The notes: generated by a model not told the origin, from the sequence alone. Shown: positions 2,331 to 55,640, counted from the first letter of the stretch. The stretch is 63,953 bases of DNA from Minisyncoccota bacterium (GCA_028714275.1 JAQTMP010000001.1:1-63953); one strand, 5' to 3'. Program-made: numbers and translations.

Positions 2331-5078
2331 TTACACAATTTTCACTTCCTCCTTTTTGTACTTTTTCAACACTTCTTCCTCAACTTCTTCCCGAGCACGA
2401 CCAAATTTTAGATACGAAAGCTCTTTTAGCTTGTCCACTAGCTCTGGACGGCCTTTCGGAGGAAAACCGGCCTTTTCAATATTAAATGGACGAGTAGGGC
2501 GACCGTCAACAAGAAGCCGCAGGTATGCATTGTGATTGTCGATATTCATAATATCTTGCGCCGTGAAAACTGGTTCAAATTGCTTAGCCAGAAACTCGGC
2601 ATCATCAGAACCAACACGGTAGACTGCCATCGAGCCGACGTTGCCAAAAACGGAATCTTTGATTTTTTCATCGAGCTGAGCGATAAACTGATGGGCAATA
2701 GTGAGGGAAAGTTTATATTTGCGAGCTTCGGAAAGAATAGTAGAGATGGAATCGGTAGTAATGTTTTGAAACTCATCAATGTACAAATAAAATGGAGGCA
2801 ACGCCGCCTTTCCAAAAGAATCCACGCGGGAAAGAGCAGCCATCAAAATTTTGCCGACAAGAATGAGACCAATGAGGTTGGAGTTGATCGCTCCAAGACG
2901 GCCCTTAGAAAGATTGACCAGCAGGATTTTCTTTTTGTCCATAATATCTCTAAAATCAAAGGCGGAATGTTCCTGAGCAATAATAGGGCGCATGATTTCA
3001 TTGGCCAAAAAGACGTCGAATTTACTGGTGATATATGGCACCATATTTTGAAGAGCGCCCTCCCCTCCAGCTTTTTCCGCGATTTCTCGCCAAAACTGGA
3101 CCACCACCGGATTTTTGCAACGAGCAATTTTGAGATCGCGAAAACTTTTAACGGCCATCACGCGAGACACATCGAGTAATGTGTTGCCGCTCTCAGGATC
3201 TTCGATGACGAGCATTGTGGCATTACGGAAATACTGCTCAAACATCGGACCCATAGACTCAGGCACGGCGCCATAAAGTTTTTGAAAAATACTGAAAAGC
3301 TCATTGACCACAAAAGTTTTCTGCTCCGGAAAATCAAGATTGTATTCGAGCATGTTGAGACCCATTGGGCGAGCAGTGTGGGCAGGATCAAAATAAATCA
3401 CATCTTCATAGCGCTCGGGTGGAATGTTAGCTAAAATATCCTGAACGTCTGAACCGTGCGGATCAATAAAACACACCCCCTCTCCGTTTTTGATATCCTG
3501 GATGATCATATTCTTGAGTAGCGTCGTTTTACCCGTACCTGTCTGACCGATGACATACATATGACGCAAACGATCTTCAGGAGCAATATATATAGGGGTC
3601 TCAAGATTGCGATGCTTGTTGATGCCGAGCAAAATACCTTCGGTGGGCAGACCGAGCGGTGCGGAGGCGGTGCCCGCCTTTGACTGCTTGAGCTGAGGAG
3701 ACGAGGTCACACTTTCCCCTGGAAAGTGCATCAATGAAGTGATTTCCTGCAAGGACAAAGGCATGGCTGAAACCTCTTCAAAGGAACGAAAGGAAAAATC
3801 TCGGATCACTTTTTTCAAGTCCGCAGGACGCTCCGCTCGTTTGAATTTTAAGGTGTTGCCCAGCGTATTTTCAAACTGATTGAAAGAAGACTCTATGTCT
3901 GTCAAAATATCCGCCGCGCGGGCCCGGTTTTCGGCTGAGGCGAGGATGCGGATGTTGGCTTCGACGATCGGGGTGCTGATTTTTAATTTTATATTTTCTA
4001 CTGCAATTTCATCGACAACTTGAGGTTTTTCTTTATCTTTTTCTTTAGGCCCCTTGATCAAGTCTTTCATCAAATCCGCCCCGACCTTGCTAAACTCACC
4101 CAAAAAAGTATGCCTTATATCAATGGCCTTTTTGGTGGACACGCCTTTAGTGATTTCTTTAAGGGCCTCTTTGTAACGGCCAACATAATAAGCCCCTCGA
4201 GGATTTATGACAATTTGGATAGAGGCCCCCTCACCGTCCTTTTTGAGCTTTGAAAGAGTGTTGAGGATGACGTTGAGAGGATCATAGTCAAACTGTTCGT
4301 AGGTCTTGATAGGAAAAATAGGATTTTTTGCTTGAGTAGCAAATGAGCCAAGGGCAATCCCAGCTGGATTGAAGATATTGTAGTCATTTTTCTGCTCGAT
4401 CAGCTTGGCGTCCGGAAAAATAGAGAGGATTTGCTTTTCAAAAAGCGCCGCTTTTTCATCTGGCACCGAAACATAAAAAATAAATTCATGGCTTCCTTCT
4501 CGGACGGCAAGCTCGATCGAAAAATGGTCGTCTCGCGCCCGCGTCTCAACTGAAAGCATGCCGGCATAAAACTGCTCCATTGAGGAAATAAGCTCCTTGA
4601 GCTGTTTTGATTGCTCCTCCTTTTTTACTTCAGGCAAGGCTACTTCAAAAAGAGTGTGCCTAAGCGATTTAGAAAAGGGCGTGCCCTCTTTTAGCCCAGC
4701 GACAGGAAAACCTTTTTTGATGTACTCAACCAAAAAACGATGAAAATCATCCTCGAGATGTGGGTTGTTCATCCCCTCAATCACTGAAAGGACATTCATG
4801 ACGCCTTTCTCATAAAGAATATGCAGCAAAGCCTCAATCTGCTTGTCGTGAGGCTCAGGTGAAAGGTCAAGCACAATCTCATCACGGCTCTGCTCAGGAA
4901 TCTTGAAGGATTCATGAAGGACCTCTGAAGGCTCTGCTGCACGATAGGTCTTCACTTGATGCTTGATCACATGCTCAAGCTTATTTTCGACACCCTGCTC
5001 ATTGAGGGCACGCTCTTTGGCCGCGACTTGTTCGCGTAAATATGTCAGCTCTTCTTGAGGTGAAGAAAACTTTTCCAT
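2331..5078 (-). CDS. Large P-loop ATPase, TraD/VirD4/HerA-FtsK-like (type IV secretion DNA-binding-domain-type)
   Basis: Walker A GQTGTGKTTLL and Walker B-like FYLYIDEFQN in the C-terminal half of a 915-aa ORF. The N-terminal half is unassigned. Confidence 0.65.
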   Translation of the reverse strand: MEKFSSPQEELTYLREQVAAKERALNEQGVENKLEHVIKHQVKTYRAAEPSEVLHESFKIPEQSRDEIVLDLSPEPHDKQIEALLHILYEKGVMNVLSVIEGMNNPHLEDDFHRFLVEYIKKGFPVAGLKEGTPFSKSLRHTLFEVALPEVKKEEQSKQLKELISSMEQFYAGMLSVETRARDDHFSIELAVREGSHEFIFYVSVPDEKAALFEKQILSIFPDAKLIEQKNDYNIFNPAGIALGSFATQAKNPIFPIKTYEQFDYDPLNVILNTLSKLKKDGEGASIQIVINPRGAYYVGRYKEALKEITKGVSTKKAIDIRHTFLGEFSKVGADLMKDLIKGPKEKDKEKPQVVDEIAVENIKLKISTPIVEANIRILASAENRARAADILTDIESSFNQFENTLGNTLKFKRAERPADLKKVIRDFSFRSFEEVSAMPLSLQEITSLMHFPGESVTSSPQLKQSKAGTASAPLGLPTEGILLGINKHRNLETPIYIAPEDRLRHMYVIGQTGTGKTTLLKNMIIQDIKNGEGVCFIDPHGSDVQDILANIPPERYEDVIYFDPAHTARPMGLNMLEYNLDFPEQKTFVVNELFSIFQKLYGAVPESMGPMFEQYFRNATMLVIEDPESGNTLLDVSRVMAVKSFRDLKIARCKNPVVVQFWREIAEKAGGEGALQNMVPYITSKFDVFLANEIMRPIIAQEHSAFDFRDIMDKKKILLVNLSKGRLGAINSNLIGLILVGKILMAALSRVDSFGKAALPPFYLYIDEFQNITTDSISTILSEARKYKLSLTIAHQFIAQLDEKIKDSVFGNVGSMAVYRVGSDDAEFLAKQFEPVFTAQDIMNIDNHNAYLRLLVDGRPTRPFNIEKAGFPPKGRPELVDKLKELSYLKFGRAREEVEEEVLKKYKKEEVKIV

Positions 5079-13148: not shown

Positions 13149-13251
13149 AAATAAATAGTGGTTTTTGGAGACCCCGCAGCCAAAGCGTTGGCGAGGATAA
13201 AGAAAATTTCAGCAGAAATTTTCTGTGTCTCCAAAAACCACTATTTAGTTT
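13149..13251. repeat. Hairpin element family A, copy 2 (inverted relative to copy 1)
   Basis: Arms are 13149-13172 and 13227-13251 (1 mismatch). The core equals the reverse complement of the copy 1 core with 5 differences, 4 of which form two compensatory pairs. It ends 3 nt from the rplE stop. Confidence 0.85.
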
Positions 13252-19989: not shown

Positions 19990-21180
19990 TTAGGCGATGA
20001 TTTTTGTAACCACTCCGGCTCCCACTGTCTTGCCTCCTTCTCGGATAGCAAAACGTGTCTGAGCTTCTAGAGCTACTGGGGCTACAAGCTTGACCTTGAA
20101 TGTAACTGTATCTCCTGGCATAACCATTTCTACACCCTCTTTCAAAGTCACTTCACCTGTAACGTCAGTTGTACGAATGTAAAACTGTGGCTTGTAACCT
20201 GAGAAGAAAGGAGTGTGTCGTCCACCTTCTTCTTTTTTCAAAATGTAGACTTCTGATTCGAATTCTGTGTGAGGAGTCACTGTACCTGGTTTTGCAAGTA
20301 CCTGACCGCGAGTGATATCTTCTTTCTTAAGACCTCGGACCAAGATACCGGCATTGTCTCCAGCGAGACCTTCGTTGAGCTGTTTATTGAACATTTCAAT
20401 ACCTGTGACTGTTGTTTTAGCTGTTGGCTTGATACCCACAACTTCAACTTCTTCACCCACTTTTATCATACCTCGCTCAATACGGCCTGTAACCACAGTA
20501 CCTCGGCCTTCAATTGAGAAGATGTCTTCAACCGGCATAAGGAAAGGCTTGTCAGTATCTCGGACTGGCATTGGAATATAGTTGTCGAGAGCATCAGCAA
20601 GCTCGAGAACTTTCTTTGACCACTCATCATTGTTGTCCTTGGCTTCAAGAGCCTTGAGAGCAGAGCCACGGATCACAGGAGCATTTTCGTCAAAACCTTG
20701 CTTTGCGAGAAGCTCACGGATCTCAGCTTCAACGAGGTCGATCATGTCTTTGTCGTCAACCATGTCGCACTTGTTCAAGAAAACGATAATCTTTGGCACA
20801 CCCACCTGTTTTGCTAGAAGAACGTGTTCACGAGTCTGAGGCATAGCACCATCAGTAGCGGCTACCACGAGAATAGCGCCGTCCATCTGAGCGGCACCAG
20901 TAATCATGTTTTTAATATAGTCGGCGTGACCTGGGGCATCAATATGAGCATAGTGTCGAGCATCAGTAGAATACTCGTTGTGAGAAAGAGCGATAGTAAT
21001 ACCGCGAGCTTTTTCTTCAGGAGCTGAGTCAATTTGGTCAACACCCTTGAGTTTTACATCTTTACCTGCGCGACTGAGAACGTTCAAAATAGCCGCTGTA
21101 AGAGTAGTCTTGCCGTGGTCAACGTGCCCAATGGTACCTACGTTAACGTGTGGCTTTGATCGATCAAAAATTTCTGCCAT
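19990..21180 (-). CDS. tuf: Elongation factor Tu
   Basis: [21 protein letters not shown] and NKCD GTPase motifs. 396 aa. Confidence 0.98.
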
Positions 21181-21370: not shown

Positions 21371-21483
21371 GCAAGCCTGTAGGTGACCTTTTGAGGAACT
21401 CACGGAGGACGACGGTCCGAGTGGGAGGAAAAAAGTCAGCAGACTTTTTATCCGTGTCCGAAAAAGGTCACCTACAGGCTTGC
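21371..21483. repeat. Hairpin element family C, copy 1 (perfect 22-bp stem, 69-nt loop with conserved 58-nt core)
   Basis: Arms are 21371-21392 and 21462-21483. Imperfect complementarity continues outward to about 21352/21497. The core recurs at 27324-27381. Confidence 0.85.
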
Positions 21484-21525: not shown

Positions 21526-23214
21526 ATGCCCTTTACATCAAGAAAGGCTGAAACTATGCAAAAAGTGAATATTTTGCGGCCGGTGATAAAAATCCTGGCT
21601 TTAGGGCCAAAAGGTAGCAATGCCCATAAGGCGGCGCGCACTTTTGCTCGAAGCCATGGACTGAAAACCTCCGGCTATATGGTGGTCTTTTGCAAAAACC
21701 ACCGCGAGCTTTTTCGAAAATTTACGAGGGAAACCTGCTTTGCTATCGTCCCTGTCGAGAATTCAATTCACGGCAAGGTCAAAGGCGTTGCAGGGGCTCT
21801 AAATCGGGTCACCAGAGAGTACAACGCTTTTGAGATGCGCCGATTTACCAAGCAAATCAAATATTGCCTGGCTACCCGCAACGGATCCACTGTCGAAAGG
21901 GTGATTTCTCACCCCCAAGCCTTGGGTCAATGCAGCGAATTCATCCAAAAAAACTGCTTCGGAAGAAGCAGGGCCCCCTCAACCTCGGCAGCAGCAGAAT
22001 TGGTGGCTAAAAGTGAAAAGCACCAAGCCTATGGGGCTATTTGCTCCGAAGAATCAGCGACTGAAAACGGCTTGTCCATTCGGGCAAGAGACATTCAAAA
22101 TCCAAAAAACCGGACCACCTTCGCTGCCCTTTCCCACGTCAACTCCATTGCATCCAAAAAAATCGCCATTTACGGTGGAAAGGGTGCCTTTGGAAGGCAA
22201 TGGGCCCGTCGACTCAAGGATCAGGGATGCACAGTCAGTTGCATCGAAGTGGAAACTCCTGAGGAAACTCAGAAAAAAATAGTAAAGGAGAGCGATGTCG
22301 TCATGATTAGCACTCCAACCCTAGTTTCCCCTTTGATTGCCAAAAGGCTTGCCCGCTGGCTGAATAAAAAACAGCTGGTGATCGATCTGACGTCCGTCAA
22401 GGTGCCGGTCTGTCGTGAGCTCACAAAATCGCAGGCAGAGTTTGCCAGCATCCACATGATGTTCGCTCCTTCGGCCAAAAGCTGGAAAGGGCAAAACATC
22501 CCGGTGTGCAAAGTGCGCATCTGCAAATGGAAAAAGTGGCTCAACGAACTTCTTAACTCCATAGGGGGGAAGACTGTCCCAACGACTCAGGAAAGGCACG
22601 ACCGGATTGCGATGATAGTCCAGCAGCAAGAGCACTTCCTGACCAAAGTAAAAATACTGGCAACCATTGAAAGCGGAGTCTCTATCAAGGAGATCCTGGC
22701 TTTCGCTAGTCCCTTTTACCAGCCGGGAATAAATCAGCTTTTGCGGTTTCTAGCCAAGCCGACCGGCATTTATACCGACATGCTCGAGGCAAATGAAAAC
22801 ACACCTCAAATGCTGAGCAACCTGCGTCGGGCCTTTAAAAAGCTCGACCTCATGGTGAAAAACAAACGGTCGGAAAAGATTAAACGGGTCATTGCAGATG
22901 CTCGGACGTATTTTGGAAAAAACACCATTCGTGGTGGCGACCAATATTCGGAAGAGCTGATCGCTGACATCGCCCGGAAGGATCCAGACGAGGTGGCGGT
23001 AATTGAGTTTACCGACAAAGAAAACCAAGCTGGCCTGTTGGCGGGTATCGCCAATGTTTTCAAAAAGTCCAACATCAATCAGTCGGGATTTAAGTACCGC
23101 CAACAAGGTCGGCGGCATCAATTCCTGATCTGTTTTGATGATCCCAAGGATCATCCGGTGATCCAAAAGGCCCTAGCTGTCATCCGACAAAAGTACGGAT
23201 GCCGAGTGGGGTAA
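21526..23214 (+). CDS. Fusion protein: prephenate dehydratase-like domain + prephenate/arogenate dehydrogenase (TyrA)-like domain + C-terminal ACT-like domain
   Basis: The N-terminal part has ILALGPKGSNAH, VPVENSIHGKV, ISHPQALGQC and NRTTFAAL (PDT-like). The middle has IAIYGGKGAFG Rossmann, DLTSVK, HMMFAPS and ERHDRIAMIVQQQEHF (TyrA-like). The C-terminal ~70 aa look like an ACT fold. An alternative start is MQKVNIL at 21556. Confidence 0.7.
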   Translation: MPFTSRKAETMQKVNILRPVIKILALGPKGSNAHKAARTFARSHGLKTSGYMVVFCKNHRELFRKFTRETCFAIVPVENSIHGKVKGVAGALNRVTREYNAFEMRRFTKQIKYCLATRNGSTVERVISHPQALGQCSEFIQKNCFGRSRAPSTSAAAELVAKSEKHQAYGAICSEESATENGLSIRARDIQNPKNRTTFAALSHVNSIASKKIAIYGGKGAFGRQWARRLKDQGCTVSCIEVETPEETQKKIVKESDVVMISTPTLVSPLIAKRLARWLNKKQLVIDLTSVKVPVCRELTKSQAEFASIHMMFAPSAKSWKGQNIPVCKVRICKWKKWLNELLNSIGGKTVPTTQERHDRIAMIVQQQEHFLTKVKILATIESGVSIKEILAFASPFYQPGINQLLRFLAKPTGIYTDMLEANENTPQMLSNLRRAFKKLDLMVKNKRSEKIKRVIADARTYFGKNTIRGGDQYSEELIADIARKDPDEVAVIEFTDKENQAGLLAGIANVFKKSNINQSGFKYRQQGRRHQFLICFDDPKDHPVIQKALAVIRQKYGCRVG

Positions 23215-24307: not shown

Positions 24308-24347
24308 CCAATTTTAAAGTATTGTAGAAAATAGAAATAAAAAAACA

Positions 24348-24405
24348 GGAAGGCCTCTCGAACGGGTTAGCGAGTCATCGAGCGCTTTAGTGAGAGAGGC
24401 CTTCC
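24348..24405. repeat. Hairpin element family B, copy 2 (12-bp GC-rich stem flanked by A/T runs, 34-nt conserved loop)
   Basis: Arms are ggaaggcctctc (24348-24359) and gagaggccttcc (24394-24405). The loop matches copy 1 except for 1 nt. It ends 6 nt from the fusA stop codon. Confidence 0.85.
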
Positions 24406-24411
24406 TTTTTT

Positions 24412-26556
24412 TTATTTGCTTCTATTTTCTACAATAGTCTTCTCCACATTTGGAGGGACCACATCGTAGTGGTCAAATTCCATGGTAGCTGAACCTCGTC
24501 CAGCGGTCATAGAACGAAGAGAGGTAGTATAGCCGAACATTTCTGACAATGGCACCATCGCCTTGATGGCTTTATTCATACCGCGATCTTCCATGCCTTC
24601 GATCTGAGCCCGCTTGGCTGAAAGTGAGCCAGTGATGTCTCCCATGAACTGTTCTGGGGTGACCACTTCTACCTTCATGATCGGCTCGAGGATGACAGGG
24701 CGAGCTTTTTTAGCGGCTTCTTGAAAGGCTTGAGAACCGGCAATCTTGTACGCGATTTCGGATGAGTCCACATCGTGATAAGAACCAAAGTTCAAATCAC
24801 AAGAAACGTTGACCATTTTAAATCCAGCCACAATCCCGCGCTCCATCGCTTCGCGAACGCCTTTTTCAACAGCAGGAATAAATTCTTGAGGAATAACCCC
24901 TCCTTTAATATTATCGATAAATTCAAAGTCATCGTAGCGCTTGACATTTTTTGGCACTTTGGCGCCCTCTTCCAATTTTTCAAGAGGTTTGATAGCAATT
25001 TTGACGTGGCCATACTGACCTTTACCTCCAGACTGCTTAATATATTTGTGTTCTGCTTCCGCACTGCCAAGAATAGTCTCTCGATAGGCCACTTGAGGTT
25101 TACCCACGTTGGCTTCTACGCCGAACTCACGCTTCATACGATCCACCATGATTTCAAGATGAAGCTCACCCATACCTGAGATGATAGTTTCCATTGTTTC
25201 GGGGTTGGTTGAGATGCGGAAAGTTGGATCCTCGTCTCCCAATTTTTTAAGAGCCATACCCATTTTTTCTTGATCCGCTTTGGTTTTTGGTTCGATACGG
25301 AGGGAAACCACAGGCTCGGCAAACTTAATAGGGTCGAGCACAATGGGATGATTTTCATCACAAAAAGTATGGGAGGTTTTGGCTTCCTTTAGACCTACAG
25401 CTGCCGCAATTTCTCCGGCAAAAACCTTTTTTACTTCTTCACGCTTGTCGGCTTGAAGGCGCACGATACGGCCAAGACGCTCCTTGTTGCCAGTGGTCGA
25501 GTTGTATAAATATGAGCCGGCTTCGACAGTCCCTGAATAAACACGGAAGAAGGTAAGCTGCCCGACAAACGGATCTGATTGGAGCTTGAAAGCCAAAGCA
25601 GCAAAAGGCTCGCTGTCAGAAGCGTGGCGAACAATCACATCTCCAGTGTTTGGATCGATACCTTGGATTGGGGGAACATCAAGAGGTGAAGGAAGATACT
25701 CCACGACGGCATCAAGGACAAGTTGAACCCCGCGATTCTTCAAAGCCGAGCCGGTAAAGACTGGGAAGATTTTGTTGGCAATCACTCCTTTACGCAAAGT
25801 TGCTTTGAGTTCCTCAATAGTAAACTCGCCGCCTTCGAGGTAACGATTCATCAAGTCTTCATCGAGCTCAACGATCTTTTCAACAAGCTCGGCGCGATAT
25901 TTTTTGGCATCTTCGAGATGAGTAGCTGGGATTTCCATTTCGCGGACATCAATACCCATATCTCCCTCGAAAGCGTAGGCCTTCATTTTCAAAAGATCGA
26001 TAACAGCTTCAAATTTGTCTTCTTCGCCAATAGGCAGCTGCATCCGGACAGCACTTTTATTGAGACGGTCAAGAATAGACCTGAAGGAACGTTCAAAAGA
26101 ACCTCCTGTGCGGTCAAGCTTGTTGATAAAACAAATGCGGGGCACATGATACTTGTCGGCTTGACGCCACACTGTTTCAGATTGAGGCTCTACTCCGGCC
26201 ACACCGTCAAAGACCACCACCCCTCCGTCGAGCACTTTGAGAGAACGCTCCACCTCCACGGTAAAGTCCACGTGTCCTGGTGTGTCAATAATATTAAAAC
26301 GATGTTTCTTGGACTGGTCCTTGCCCATATAGCTTGGATTCCAAAAACAGGTAATAGCAGCAGCTGTAATAGTGATGCCTCGTTCTTTTTCCTGTTCCAT
26401 CCAGTCAGTGACAGCTTCACCTTCATGCACTTCACCAATCTTGTGGCTCATGCCTGTGTAATAAAGAATGCGCTCAGACGTAGTGGTCTTGCCAGCGTCG
26501 ATGTGAGCAATGATACCAAAGTTTCGGGTTTTTTCGAGTGAATAGTCGCGTTCCAT
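24412..26556 (-). CDS. fusA: Elongation factor G
   Basis: [20 protein letters not shown] and NKLD motifs. 714 aa. Confidence 0.98.
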
Positions 26557-26683: not shown

Positions 26684-26941
26684 CTACTTATATAGAGCAC
26701 TGTGAGTCCCTACCTTGATCAAGATGTATGAGTTCGTTTCAACTTTTTTATAAATCAATCTAATATCCCATGTCACATTAATACTCCTATATAAAGAATA
26801 CTCGCCGTGTAACTGATGATTGTTTAAAATTGACTCAAATTCATTCTTGATTAAAATTTCTAATCGTTCAAGCACTTTGATTTGCTGTTTATGTGGCAAC
26901 TTTTTAAAAAGTCTTTTAAATTCAGGTGAATAAATCAGCAT
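26684..26941 (-). CDS. RelE/YafQ-family type II toxin, copy 2
   Basis: 85 aa ending VGTHSALYK. Clearly alignable by eye to the toxin at 11712-11969. Confidence 0.7.
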   Translation of the reverse strand: MLIYSPEFKRLFKKLPHKQQIKVLERLEILIKNEFESILNNHQLHGEYSLYRSINVTWDIRLIYKKVETNSYILIKVGTHSALYK

Positions 26942-26961
26942 GAGGAGTTTGAAATTGAAAA

Positions 26962-27246
26962 CTAAGACATGAGTTGTCTTGCAAGCTCGTCAATATTTTT
27001 TGCTTTGTAAAAATGACCCTTTTTATACTCTTTCTCAGATCTAGTAATTGAGCGAATTAAGCTAGCTGTAGGACGAGGTGCTATTGAAAAAGTCACTTCC
27101 TTTGAACGAACAAACTGTCTCAGGAAGGCATTTATAACTGTACTCAAAGAGATGCCCATCTCATCAGCGGTTTTTTTTGCATCTAATTTAAGACTCTTAT
27201 CCATTTTTATAGAAATAAGTGTCTTTGTGTGATTGATTGTAGTCAT
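26962..27246 (-). CDS. DinJ/RelB-like antitoxin, copy 2
   Basis: MTTINHTKTLISIKMDKSLKLDAKKTADEMGISLSTVINAFLRQFV. The track ORF (to 27525) runs through element C2 and into rpsG, so the internal ATG at 27246 is used. Confidence 0.65.
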   Translation of the reverse strand: MTTINHTKTLISIKMDKSLKLDAKKTADEMGISLSTVINAFLRQFVRSKEVTFSIAPRPTASLIRSITRSEKEYKKGHFYKAKNIDELARQLMS

Positions 27247-27281
27247 ATACCAAAGTATATACTTTGGTATATTATTGTCAA
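27247..27281 (-). promoter_or_regulatory. Promoter (TTGACA - 16 nt - TATACT) overlapping a perfect 24-bp palindrome ATACCAAAGTATATACTTTGGTAT that abuts the antitoxin ATG; candidate operator and leaderless transcript
   Basis: The palindrome is 27247-27270. The -35 is at 27276-27281 and the -10 at 27254-27259 (plus-strand coordinates). Only 7 nt separate the -10 from the ATG, and no Shine-Dalgarno sequence is visible. Confidence 0.5.
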
Positions 27282-27296
27282 GTAACGTAGTAGTAT

Positions 27297-27409
27297 AAAA
27301 AAACAAAAAACCTCTTGAAGGAGACTCGCGGAGGACGACGGTCCGAGCGTGAGGAAAAAAGTCAGCAGACTTTTTATCCGTTCTCCTGAAAGAGGTTTTT
27401 TGTTTTTTT
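27297..27409. repeat. Hairpin element family C, copy 2 (perfect 20-bp A/T-rich stem, 73-nt loop)
   Basis: Arms are 27297-27316 and 27390-27409. The 58-nt core differs from copy 1 at 3 positions, two of which are a compensatory pair. It ends 3 nt from the rpsG stop. Confidence 0.85.
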
Positions 27410-27412
27410 AAA

Positions 27413-27883
27413 TTACCAAGCCAGGTGGGCAAAAGCCTTGTTGGCCTCGGCCATTTTGTGAGTGTTTTCGCGCTTTTTGACCGCTTCACCTTCGTTTTTG
27501 GATGCGAGGATGATTTCATCAGCAAGCTTGAGATGCATTGGCTGACCCTTTTTAGCTCGAGCAGCGAGAATGATCCATTTCATAGAAAGATGGCTGCGGC
27601 GCTCAGGTCGAACTTCACGGGGAACCTGATAGTTGGCGCCACCAACTCGGCGGGAGCGGACTTCCATAGCCGGAGCGGTGTTGTTGAGAGCTGTATCAAA
27701 AACTTCGAGAGGATTTTCAACTTTTTCCTTTTCTTTAATGGCATCAAAAGCGCCATAGACAATAGCGCGGGCGGCATTTTTCTTGCCTCGTTCCATGACG
27801 TAGTTTACAAACTTCTCAATCTTTTCAGATTTGAAAACTGGATCTGGCTTGACGATATTTCGATTTTTAACTTTTCTTCGCAT
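27413..27883 (-). CDS. rpsG: 30S ribosomal protein S7
   Basis: EVRSRRVGGANYQVPREV...MAEANKAFAHLAW. Confidence 0.95.
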   Translation of the reverse strand: MRRKVKNRNIVKPDPVFKSEKIEKFVNYVMERGKKNAARAIVYGAFDAIKEKEKVENPLEVFDTALNNTAPAMEVRSRRVGGANYQVPREVRPERRSHLSMKWIILAARAKKGQPMHLKLADEIILASKNEGEAVKKRENTHKMAEANKAFAHLAW

Positions 27884-45715: not shown

Positions 45716-46153
45716 ATGCTAAAAAATATCCCTTATATTACCGACCCAGATTGCCTTTTTTGTAAAATCATTGAGGGCTCAATTTCATCATATAAAGTCT
45801 ACGAAGATGCTGACACTTATGCTTTTCTGGATATCAATCCAAACAATCACGGCCACACCCTAGTAGTGCCAAAAGATCATTTTGAAAATATTTATGGCAC
45901 CCCAGATGAAACTCTCTGTCGTACCATGATCACAGCCCGGAAAGTCGCCATCGCAGTCAAAAACGCCCTAAATGCAGACGGGGTAAACATTAACATCAAC
46001 AACGAAACGGCGGCTGGCCAAATAATTTTTCATACTCACATTCATATTATTCCTCGTTTCAATAATGACGGTTTCAAACACTGGGCCCAAAAAAGCTACC
46101 TCCCTGGCGAAGCCGAAAGCGTCTTAGAAAAGATAAAAGAAAAACTTAAATAA
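45716..46153 (+). CDS. HIT-family (histidine triad) nucleotide hydrolase
   Basis: CLFCKII...FLDINP.N.GHTLVVPK...HTHIHIIPR. Confidence 0.9.
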   Translation: MLKNIPYITDPDCLFCKIIEGSISSYKVYEDADTYAFLDINPNNHGHTLVVPKDHFENIYGTPDETLCRTMITARKVAIAVKNALNADGVNININNETAAGQIIFHTHIHIIPRFNNDGFKHWAQKSYLPGEAESVLEKIKEKLK

Positions 46154-46271
46154 AATTAAGAGCCCTTTCGGGAGCACGGATAAATCCTTGCTAGGATTTT
46201 CCTCGTGCTCGCTCCGTCGAGCCTCGCAAGTCTCCCTCAAGGGTTCTTAATTTTATTTAAGTTTTTCTTTT
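46135..46271. repeat. Hairpin element family D, copy 1 (31-bp stem with one G-T, ~75-nt conserved core)
   Basis: Arms are 46135-46165 and 46241-46271. The 5' arm contains the last 5 codons plus stop of the HIT gene, and the 3' arm reaches the pgk stop codon. The core recurs at 55551-55620. Confidence 0.85.
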
Positions 46272-47412
46272 ATTTTAGCGCTTCAATTCCGACTAACGTC
46301 TCATCCAAAAGATATTGCAACATCGCACCGCCGCCAGTAGAAATAAAACTAATTTTTGACTCAGCTTTTTCCCCGAGAGAGCTAATAGCGGCCAGAGTAT
46401 CTCCCCCGCCCACCACCGCTTCTAAAGAGCCGTCCGCATCTGAAATAATTTTAGCCAGCTCAATAGTCGGCTCCGTAAAACCAAGCTCATAATTTCCGAG
46501 TGGACCATTCCACAAAACACATTTTGATTCACCAATCATGGTCTGCAGCATAGACATGGTTTCGGGACCTGCATCCATAATGACGTCTGCGTCACCCACT
46601 TGGTCTGATTTCTTGGCTGAAACAGCCTGAGTATTTTTATCCTGCACGATGACATCTGTCGGGACCAAAAGCCTGGTGTCCGCTACTATATCTGTGACCG
46701 AAAAATCTCCACCTGAGACAAGCGATGCTCCGACATTCCATCTGCGCGCCTTAAAAAGATTGTTGGCCAAAGCTCCTCCCACAAAAACATGGTCAGCCAA
46801 CGTTAAAAACTTTTGAATCAAAGGGAGTTTGGTGTCAAACTTAGCGCCGCCTAAAATAAACAAAAAAGGATGAGGGGGGTGAAATATTTTTTTGAGATGG
46901 TTGATCTCGTCAGACAAAAGCAGCCCAGCATAGTGAGGTAAAAATTCGGGTACCCCCACTATCGAAGCATGTGATCGGTGTGAGACAGAAAAAGCATCAT
47001 TCACGTAGATGTCTGCAAAACCAGCTAGTTTTTTAGAAAATTCTCGATCATTCTTTTTTTCTTCTGGGTATTGGCGGATATTTTCGACGAGAATGATATC
47101 TCCGTCCGCCATAGAAGACATTTCGGCTAAACTTTCTTTGCTAAAAATATCTTCAACAAAAGTTAAAGGAAAAATCTTCATTAAATAATCATAGATAGGC
47201 CGCAGGGAATCTCCGCCCTTGCCTTCAATGTGACTAATGAGGATAATCTTTGCCTTTTGATTGCGTAAAAACTCAATAGTCGCAAGGCTTTTTTTGATTC
47301 GGGTGTCTCCAGTGATTTTACCGTTTTCGATGGGGACATTAAAATCTACCCGCACAAGTACTTTTTTACCGGCAAGGGATTCCAAGGTGGTGATGGATTT
47401 TGGGATGAGCAT
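46270..47412 (-). CDS. pgk: Phosphoglycerate kinase
   Basis: RVDFNVP, ISH.GKG, NDAFSVSHR and STGGGA motifs. Confidence 0.95.
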   Translation of the reverse strand: MLIPKSITTLESLAGKKVLVRVDFNVPIENGKITGDTRIKKSLATIEFLRNQKAKIILISHIEGKGGDSLRPIYDYLMKIFPLTFVEDIFSKESLAEMSSMADGDIILVENIRQYPEEKKNDREFSKKLAGFADIYVNDAFSVSHRSHASIVGVPEFLPHYAGLLLSDEINHLKKIFHPPHPFLFILGGAKFDTKLPLIQKFLTLADHVFVGGALANNLFKARRWNVGASLVSGGDFSVTDIVADTRLLVPTDVIVQDKNTQAVSAKKSDQVGDADVIMDAGPETMSMLQTMIGESKCVLWNGPLGNYELGFTEPTIELAKIISDADGSLEAVVGGGDTLAAISSLGEKAESKISFISTGGGAMLQYLLDETLVGIEALK

Positions 47413-55530: not shown

Positions 55531-55640
55531 CTATCAGTCTAAAGTCTCTTTCGGGAGCACGGATAAATCCTTGCTAGGATTTTCCTCGTGCTCGCTCCGT
55601 CGAGCTCGCAAGTCTCCCTCAAGAGACTTTAAACTGATGG
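55531..55640. repeat. Hairpin element family D, copy 2 (20-bp stem with 2 mismatches)
   Basis: Arms are 55531-55550 and 55621-55640. The 3' arm is the last 6 codons of the DGR RT gene (HQFKVS). The core differs from copy 1 by a 1-nt indel. Confidence 0.85.

Follow-up and report, generated by a model that had tools for sequence, protein, structure and literature searches.

A locus with two related hairpins

The window, that is, the whole 63,953-nt stretch of DNA analysed here (Minisyncoccota bacterium, GCA_028714275.1 JAQTMP010000001.1:1-63953), contains two long hairpins with a shared core, denoted copy 1 and copy 2. Copy 2 is located 2 nt away from rpsG, which encodes S7 (27413-27883, minus strand), on the side that faces a RelB/YafQ toxin-antitoxin pair (26684-27246, minus strand); past this pair come fusA and then two ORFs without a Pfam match. 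A terminator that parts rpsL-rpsG from the toxin-antitoxin module inserted there would occupy exactly this position. Copy 1 is flanked by two divergent genes, tuf (19990-21180, minus strand) and a PDT-PDH fusion (21526-23214, plus strand); more precisely, it is located between a promoter-like site of tuf (21332-21305) and the start of PDT-PDH. The Pfam annotation thus agrees with the gene context given for both copies in the preliminary description of this DNA.

Directly beyond copy 2, the toxin-antitoxin module has a promoter-like site, TTGACA-16-TATACT, on the minus strand (27281-27254). This near-consensus RelB/YafQ promoter is overlapped by a spacerless perfect palindrome of 14+14 bp (27245-27272; ATATACCAAAGTAT followed directly by ATACTTTGGTATAT) which, judging from its sequence and placement, is probably an autoregulatory operator of the module.

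Both the sequence read-out and pattern searches, exact and with 3 mismatches allowed, recovered the shared core twice in the window, with a chance expectation of 0; the 18-mer GGAGGACGACGGTCCGAG and the 26-mer AAAAAGTCAGCAGACTTTTTATCCGT each have 2 exact matches in the window, with 0 expected. When folded and compared to shuffled sequence, both strands of both copies yielded z-scores from -8.9 to -11. The core of copy 2 is at the coordinates originally assigned to it, whereas that of copy 1, although real, had been placed one base too low, at 21397-21454 instead of 21398-21455. Of the stem lengths initially reported, 22 bp is accurate for copy 1, but the stem of copy 2 is 21 bp long, the value of 20 bp being the part inside 27297-27409. 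The two hairpins consist of the following features:

27296-27410, plus strand: copy 2, whole hairpin, with the core at 27324-27381 and perfect arms of 21 bp
27296-27316, plus strand: copy 2, 5' arm of stem P1, TAAAAAAACAAAAAACCTCTT, in the fold a perfect 21-bp inverted repeat with 27390-27410
27317-27318, plus strand: copy 2, GA of the GA/GA internal loop, facing the partner GA at 27388-27389 in the fold
27319-27324, plus strand: copy 2, inner stem P1a (AGGAGA), paired in the fold with 27382-27387 (TCTCCT); 5 of 5 modelled pairs covary
27325-27352, plus strand: copy 2, helix P2, in the fold CTCGC / internal loop G-G-A / GGAC / loop GACG / GTCC / GA / GCG(TG)AG
27353-27379, plus strand: copy 2, helix P3, GGAAAAAAGTC-AGCA-GACTTTTT-A-TCC, with the AGCA loop at 27364-27367 and a bulged A at 27376; 10 of 10 modelled pairs covary
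27380-27381, plus strand: copy 2, junction GU that links P3 and P1a; G in 67 and U in 64 of 73 copies
27390-27410, plus strand: copy 2, 3' arm of P1, with its end 2 nt from the rpsG stop codon (27413-27415)
21371-21483, plus strand: copy 1, whole hairpin, with the core at 21398-21455 inside private 22-bp arms (21371-21392 and 21462-21483); its GA/GA loop is followed by a P1a of 3 bp

A superfamily of hairpins with a Y-shaped tip

The genome to which the window belongs (G000; a 742-kb assembly, 97.5% complete, 44% G+C) contains 154 perfect inverted repeats of at least 12 bp, many of which enclose conserved cores. An HMM search followed by a covariance model built from 17 copies (model R1) identified 37 superfamily copies in this genome, about 25 of the C/D type (63-102 bits) and about 9 of the A type (45-50 bits). 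Beyond copies 1 and 2, the matches to the covariance model in the window include these:

46133-46273, minus strand: superfamily copy, family D, 102.5 bits
55533-55638, minus strand: C/D-type copy, 100.1 bits
7290-7409, minus strand: A-type copy, 49.8 bits, E = 1.8e-12, with the same architecture in the fold
13152-13247, plus strand: A-type copy, 46.8 bits

The conserved unit is a Y-shaped three-way junction atop a long perfect stem, P1, that is private to each copy. Inside a symmetric GA/GA internal loop, an inner stem, P1a, of 3-6 bp supports two helices. P2 comprises a lower helix, an internal loop with G(N)A facing GA, an upper helix of 4-5 bp and a GACG loop; P3 is an A/U-rich helix of 9-11 bp with a bulged A and an AGYA loop, after which a GU(G) junction closes the structure. 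The 8-bp hairpin AAAAAGTC-AGCA-GACTTTTT that had been noticed in the core exists, as part of the 11-bp helix P3 with its bulged A. Because the short inner stem and the usual GA/GA loop belong to the unit, it is about 77-81 nt long, not 58 nt as originally proposed.

Family D turned out to be the C type seen on the opposite strand, and family A is a shorter sister type with the same architecture, a shorter P2 and no bulge. A single covariance model finds all three, so that the separation of family C from A and D in the preliminary description gives way to one superfamily; the AT-rich, AGCA-capped hairpin was correctly recognized there as common to C, A and D. This cap does not extend to all hairpin families, however, because families B and E have different cores. 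Yet these two families have the same boundary, with private arms abutting a direct GA...GA repeat.

Covariation and invariant unpaired bases

The model-guided alignment included 77 copies, 73 of them distinct, from G000, the sister species G001 and 26 loci of 14 other genomes. Standard pairs occupy 97.2% of the 1867 pair cells, compared to 38-53% when the partners were slid by 1-3 columns and 64% in shuffles; fitting the alignment to the model favours the structure, but the margin is still very large. Far from accumulating substitutions that break the proposed helices, the additional copies preserve them, and both-sided changes are found in 26 of 27 pairs. The difference between the two copies that had been read as compensatory (CAC...GUG versus CGC...GCG) falls in a pair that is GC in 44, CG in 11, AU in 8 and UA in 7 of the 73 distinct copies. 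The initial view of a hairpin family with a conserved core, compensatory change and long private stems is thus borne out. The upper 4-bp helix of P2 covaries freely, as do all five modelled pairs of P1a. In the relative G020, the upper P2 helix differs among otherwise identical tips, and the differences are always compensated (GCGC/GCGC, GGCC/GGCC, CGCC/GGCG, AGGC/GCCT).

The pairs are almost exclusively Watson-Crick (95.5%), with 1.7% G-U and 0.5% A-C. Such scarcity of G-U pairs is unusual for helices under selection at the RNA level, and Watson-Crick-only pairing implies that both strands are able to fold. The unpaired positions are nearly fixed. The letters of the AGCA loop are A, G, C and A in 72, 68, 64 and 73 of the 73 copies, respectively; the bulged A is present in 67 of 67; the GA on the 3' side of the P2 internal loop is conserved in 73 and 72 of 73; and the G(N)A side, the GACG loop and GUG are nearly invariant. 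GA is also the commonest letter pair on either side of the GA/GA loop among the 73 distinct copies. Invariance of this kind suggests that one folded strand is read by something, but conserved unpaired bases across families of the phylum suit a functional RNA and a DNA ligand equally well.

Position and orientation relative to genes

Genomic context was assessed against a gene set consisting of genes backed by conservation in G001, with the gaps filled by long ORFs. The 37 copies in G000 occupy 12 convergent, 23 tandem and 2 divergent intergenic sites, so that convergent sites are enriched (32% of the copies vs 13% of the intergenic regions, P = 0.002). A gene end lies upstream of 35 of the 37 copies, with the outer end of the palindrome typically between -21 and +40 nt from the stop codon. 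Copy 1 is an exception, being located between divergent genes, in a promoter region rather than in the position of a terminator. At tandem sites, the tip is in sense orientation in 12 cases and antisense in 11; likewise, in the single 680-kb contig of genome G035, copies on the two strands are mixed all along. The arms are A-rich at the 5' side and T-rich at the 3' side on either strand, which is the shape of a bidirectional terminator; a simple terminator scan is unable to score loops longer than 8 nt. The copy at 55533-55638 adjoins a DGR, but there is no variable region beside this copy, and a link with the DGR was rejected.

Stems are local DNA whereas tips come and go

Three type-1 tips differ from one another at 2-3 of 58 nt (95-97% identity), but their arms are unrelated and unique in the genome. 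Searched against the genome, the arms of the G000 copies have no match beyond chance and show no significant likeness between copies; an origin of the arms by copying from elsewhere in the genome was rejected on this ground.

We compared orthologous sites with the nearly complete genome (808 kb) of the sister species G001. In G001, the rpsG site is occupied by a perfect 17-bp hairpin with a plain loop, AAAAAGACCCTCTTGGC-gagaaatt-GCCAAGAGGGTCTTTTT, the stem of which resembles the P1 arm of copy 2, itself unique in G000 (AAGAGGGTCTTTTT versus AAGAGGTTTTTT); at C4:21904 and C5:4730 (contig:position), G001 has a different tip family, of the E type, on partly similar arms. Given that the two genomes are only about 70-80% identical, the arm homology at these three sites rests on short A/T-rich matches. 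At the tuf site (21371), both genes are present in G001 without the element or any such palindrome; at C35:3980, there are two ordinary terminators; and the sites C32:622 and 46133 are empty. The fusA site, where the arms are likewise similar in part, is occupied by a C-type element in G001 and by a B-type one in G000. The only site with the superfamily in both species is C9:15125 (C4:31704 in G001), where the two elements have the same orientation and differ in P2 and P3 by compensated changes. In G000, two elements of opposite orientation at this site (C9:14198-15257) bracket about 820 nt with small ORFs; the matching site of G001 (C4:31704-31830) has a single element and no insert.

Some of the arms contain coding sequence of the neighbouring gene. 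The left arm at 46133 encodes six C-terminal codons that are conserved in the element-free G001 ortholog. At fusA, the gene-side arm holds the conserved last codons (..T-I-V-E..) in both genomes, which means that coding DNA must have been copied in inverted form to give the opposite arm. In the family B hairpin of G000 (24320-24436), the outer 17-bp arm at 24420-24436 corresponds to the last fusA codons and 24320-24336 is its inverted copy, with the fusA stop codon at 24412-24414; in the C-type element of G001 (C21:51888-52012), the arm also includes the fusA stop codon.

Decay and correction are apparent as well. Two hairpin loops look like eroded tips: the one at C18:1200-1269, 30 nt long, retains three parts of a C-type tip, namely GA, P1a and the 3' end of P3; the one at C38:691-724 reads gaaagtga, which equals a B-type core with an internal deletion; and at C36:7299, the GA/GA loop has been 'corrected' to TC/GG. 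In G020 (loci L241-L250), the arms are related between copies and differ by substitutions and indels, with each arm pair perfectly complementary.

Apart from the hairpin tips, G000 contains many perfect palindromes with arms of 15-22 bp and a spacer of 0-1 nt (for example, C32:8460-8499, C37:4044-4087, C11:8986-9017 and C56:2813-2846); among those with arms of at least 10 bp, 8 are spacerless and 10 have a one-base spacer. Such near-spacerless palindromes are atypical of terminators and fit with fold-back synthesis being common in G000.

Comparison with known RNA families and mobilizing enzymes

No Rfam family, hammerhead, twister, twister-sister, pistol, hatchet and group II intron D5-D6 included, matched any part of the window at the gathering threshold, and E-value scans of both copies returned just generic long-hairpin matches far below it. 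Several structural resemblances were inspected and dismissed. A hammerhead core would need longer junction strands. P2 and P3 recall domains 5 and 6 of group II introns, with a 2-nt bulge and a bulged A, respectively, but lack the AGC triad, the GNRA loop and an Rfam match. TIGR-Tas arrays do not fit either, the elements being dispersed single hairpins with self-complementary arms and no spacer arrays.

The Y1 transposase domain Y1_Tnp (PF01797) is absent from G000 (37 copies), G001, G020 (36 copies) and G029, but present in 9 of 17 element-free genomes, so that a RAYT/IS200-type Y1 transposase, missing from G000 and showing no association with the element, was rejected as the mover. Of the 24 genomes with the element, 15 encode Resolvase (PF00239), as do 10 of the 17 that lack it; the domain is absent from G003 and G014, which have 18 and 21 copies, respectively. 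A serine recombinase was set aside as the mover on account of this lack of association. That GA...GA marks a 2-bp crossover is neither favoured nor disfavoured by palindromes with a central GA, which are not clearly enriched: among perfect palindromes with a 2-nt centre, GA/TC is found in 5 of 20, against 3.3 expected. Target-site duplications were not detected in G000, where the longest flanking direct repeat averages 3.4 nt, the same as in controls (3.4 nt), and reaches at least 6 nt in 1 of 37 copies. A tblastn search with the IS982-type transposase of G028 (see below) found no such enzyme in G000 or G001. None of the searches for Y1_Tnp, Resolvase and IS982-type transposase identified a protein associated with the tip.

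The situation in the relative G028 is different. All 19 fetched copies (loci L222-L240) share the whole hairpin of about 165 nt with terminal inverted repeats (YTTTGAATTACGAAACTC...), and 15 of the 19 are flanked by AT-rich target-site duplications of 6-8 bp. An autonomous IS of about 975 bp in the same genome (L261:439-1413; G028:C20, about 3938-4912), with ends identical to those of the MITE, encodes a 266-aa DDE_Tnp_1_3 (IS982-type) transposase. The simplest reading is that, in G028, a tip came to occupy the middle of a palindromic MITE, which then carried it along. Together with the partly shared arms of G020, this MITE implies that, in some genomes, the whole hairpin moves rather than the tip alone.

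Distribution among genomes

Within the same order, sampled as one genome per family except for the sister species, 24 of 41 genomes contain between 1 and 49 copies, and 17 contain none. In an even sample across the phylum, matches were found in 15 of 401 genomes, with these phylum counts being lower bounds because few candidates per genome were scored. The exact 18-mer GGAGGACGACGGTCCGAG occurs in 83 stretches of a collection of species representatives. Most of the 18-mer elements confirmed by the model come from genomes labelled Paceibacterota, Parcubacteria, Doudna-, Yanofsky-, Nomura- and Saccharibacteria; the matches in high-GC actinomycetes and archaea are within the chance range. Two exact core patterns had 0 matches in viral contigs, and carriage by phages was discounted on these grounds. 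A search for strain-level relatives by the exact S7 protein retrieved none on record. In three loci labelled as uncultured Saccharibacteria (L142, L148 and L186; contigs CAZCND01...), the elements form dense arrays, with one every 120-250 nt, in which C-type units alternate with another hairpin type in the opposite orientation and the arms are common to the units.

Proposed interpretation: a mobile tip on self-templated arms

The interpretation we favour, derived from sequence comparison, distinguishes two layers, namely, arms that would be self-templated perfect palindromes and a tip that would be a dispensable mobile module. The case for a mobile, dispensable tip is that arms without any relationship bear near-identical tips, that copy number is distributed patchily, that sites turn over, that decay remnants are present and that orientation is random. 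The case for self-templating is that the arms are Watson-Crick-only, include copied coding sequence, remain perfect while diverging in G020 and show a conversion at C36:7299. On balance, the Y-shaped tip is somewhat probably a selfish module that acts at the DNA level and occupies the tips of terminator-like palindromes at gene ends. Such a module would take over the apex of a resident palindrome, whose arms, and probably the inner helices too, could be held perfectly Watson-Crick by template switching within a strand (fold-back), either in replication or in repair; the same process may extend the arms outward. The invariant unpaired bases would then provide the contact surface for a putative protein that reads one folded strand, and the whole hairpin probably still serves its neighbours as a putative bidirectional intrinsic terminator.

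A more specific and, in our estimate, unlikely version has the tip as the recognition module of a new DNA-moving route, in which a structure-specific enzyme or tip-copying repair would install the module of about 60-80 nt at the apex of a hairpin, with no terminal inverted repeats, target-site duplication or element-encoded transposase. Under this scenario, the palindrome would grow by fold-back synthesis into gene ends, and the GA...GA common to three unrelated tip families would be a scar.

The tip could also be a functional structured RNA of gene 3' ends, transcribed within the terminator hairpin, bound by an RNA-binding protein or RNase, for example, in 3'-end protection or processing, and kept by host selection. 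Strong covariation, invariant loop, bulge and junction bases, the placement of 35 of 37 copies downstream of a gene end, typically at -21 to +40 nt from the stop codon, and arms that are A-rich at the 5' and T-rich at the 3' side, like bidirectional intrinsic terminators, all speak for such a role. However, the tips point either way with respect to the gene upstream (12 sense vs 11 antisense), so that, in half of the tandem copies, an RNA would bear the complementary loops CGUC and UGCU, and G-U pairs amount to 1.7%; the random orientation and the near-absence of G-U pairs both speak against an RNA that functions in cis in a strand-specific manner. Moreover, 17 of the 41 genomes of the order have no copy, with the number elsewhere ranging from 1 to 49; the orthologous sites of G001 have plain loops or tips of another family, or else are empty; copy 1 is situated in a promoter region between divergent genes; and Rfam has no match. 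We therefore regard a host-selected RNA as improbable. The orientation independence that counts against an RNA would be expected to suit a host signal at the DNA level, whereby extruded Y-tipped hairpins or cruciforms bind a chromosome-organising, replication or repair protein, in the way that REP/BIME elements are bound by gyrase, IHF and Pol I; Watson-Crick-only pairing with both strands foldable, the invariant unpaired bases and the genome-wide intergenic spread are compatible with this role too. Nevertheless, the patchy presence among close relatives with rapid turnover at orthologous sites, the decay remnants, the occurrence of several unrelated tip families at the same type of site and the failure of our searches to find a candidate protein make a host signal the least probable of the explanations considered. 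A conventional MITE, in which the whole hairpin is the unit, a transposase acts in trans and the arms only seem private due to fast self-templated concerted divergence, would account for G028, with its 19 of 19 fetched copies sharing the hairpin of about 165 nt with terminal inverted repeats, 15 of 19 having direct repeats of 6-8 bp and an IS of about 975 bp that shares these inverted repeats and encodes the DDE_Tnp_1_3 (IS982-type) transposase, as well as for the partly related arms of G020. In G000, by contrast, there are no flanking direct repeats, the arms are unrelated despite tips that are 95-97% identical, and arms include conserved coding sequence of the neighbouring gene; neither G000 nor G001 has an IS982-type transposase, and there is no Y1_Tnp. 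A tip that settled in the middle of a palindromic MITE and was carried along with it would also explain G028. Taking these points together, we consider a conventional MITE to be quite improbable, although marginally less so than a host signal.

If the selfish-tip interpretation is correct, gene-end palindromes are a habitat of selfish DNA, with a conserved tip and a private stem, the reverse of REPs and MITEs. This would be the case even in compact CPR genomes of about 0.7 Mb, among which G000 holds 37 superfamily copies and further hairpin-tip families. Perfect 'compensatory' covariation could then result from self-templating at the DNA level instead of selection on RNA, which would call for caution in the discovery of RNA motifs, and palindromes that grow outward could overwrite the ends of adjacent genes, including the final codons and the stop codon. 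From the invariant unpaired bases, a specific binding partner can be predicted.

Relationship to known repeats

A full-text literature search of limited coverage found no description of such elements in CPR bacteria. Interspersed palindromic repeats are known as a class, but the hairpin-tip repeat of CPR/Patescibacteria is apparently undescribed; as far as we found, its novelty lies in the architecture, with a conserved three-way-junction tip on private stems of local DNA and no inverted-repeat ends, duplications or transposase.

The bacterial MITEs (Correia/NEMIS, RUP, ERIC and the IS982- and IS630-derived ones) are similarly small, non-autonomous, long hairpins, often at gene ends, but possess conserved terminal inverted repeats and target-site duplications, whereas the G000 copies have neither, nor a matching transposase; only in G028 does the likeness go further, as the MITE that encloses the tip there is of the IS982 type and has both terminal inverted repeats and target-site duplications (6-8 bp). 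Selfish palindromes in small reduced genomes, with no transposase gene, include the Rickettsia palindromic elements, the sponge RHE (PMC2800124), the Volvox palindromes (PMC2670323) and the fungal double-hairpin elements. The Rickettsia and mitochondrial hairpin repeats likewise proliferate in intergenic DNA and sometimes into coding sequence, but there the whole palindrome is conserved, and none has been described with a three-way-junction tip on site-specific arms. The attC sites of integrons are comparable in that structure is conserved over sequence, one folded DNA strand with extrahelical bases is recognised, and the sites are located at gene 3' ends. The polarity is reversed, however, because conservation in attC is found at the stem base, in the R and L boxes, and variation at the tip; furthermore, attC sites come with an IntI integrase and are uniformly oriented in arrays, in contrast to the mixed orientations here. 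A model in which template switching corrects imperfect inverted repeats is well established (PMC5941160), and the behaviour of the arms described above fits with it. Such quasipalindrome correction and the coding palindromes of Nematomorpha mitochondria (PMC6649704) parallel the present arms in that perfect arms are kept, arms overlap coding sequence and compensated changes arise from a mutational mechanism, but they involve generic inverted repeats without a shared structured central module.

The REP, BIME and REPIN elements of Proteobacteria, with the associated RAYT (TnpA-REP), are also short, non-coding, high-copy extragenic hairpin repeats found mostly after genes, in both orientations and without target-site duplication; their active form is presumed to be folded single-stranded DNA (PMC3116915, PMC8266576, PMC3733652). 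In REPs, however, it is the stem that is conserved, together with a tag (GTAG or CGTC), and the repeats are accompanied by RAYT, a Y1 HUH transposase. Here, the tip is conserved and the stem private, and copy number does not follow Y1_Tnp, which G000 lacks. Another repeat family of G000 has a pattern opposite to that of the hairpin tips, with a stem (..TATGTAATATAA / TTATATTACATA..) that is conserved between copies and a loop of 15-17 nt; examples are found at C15:1467-1537, C25:4278-4340, C34:6292-6366 and C40:2584-2646.
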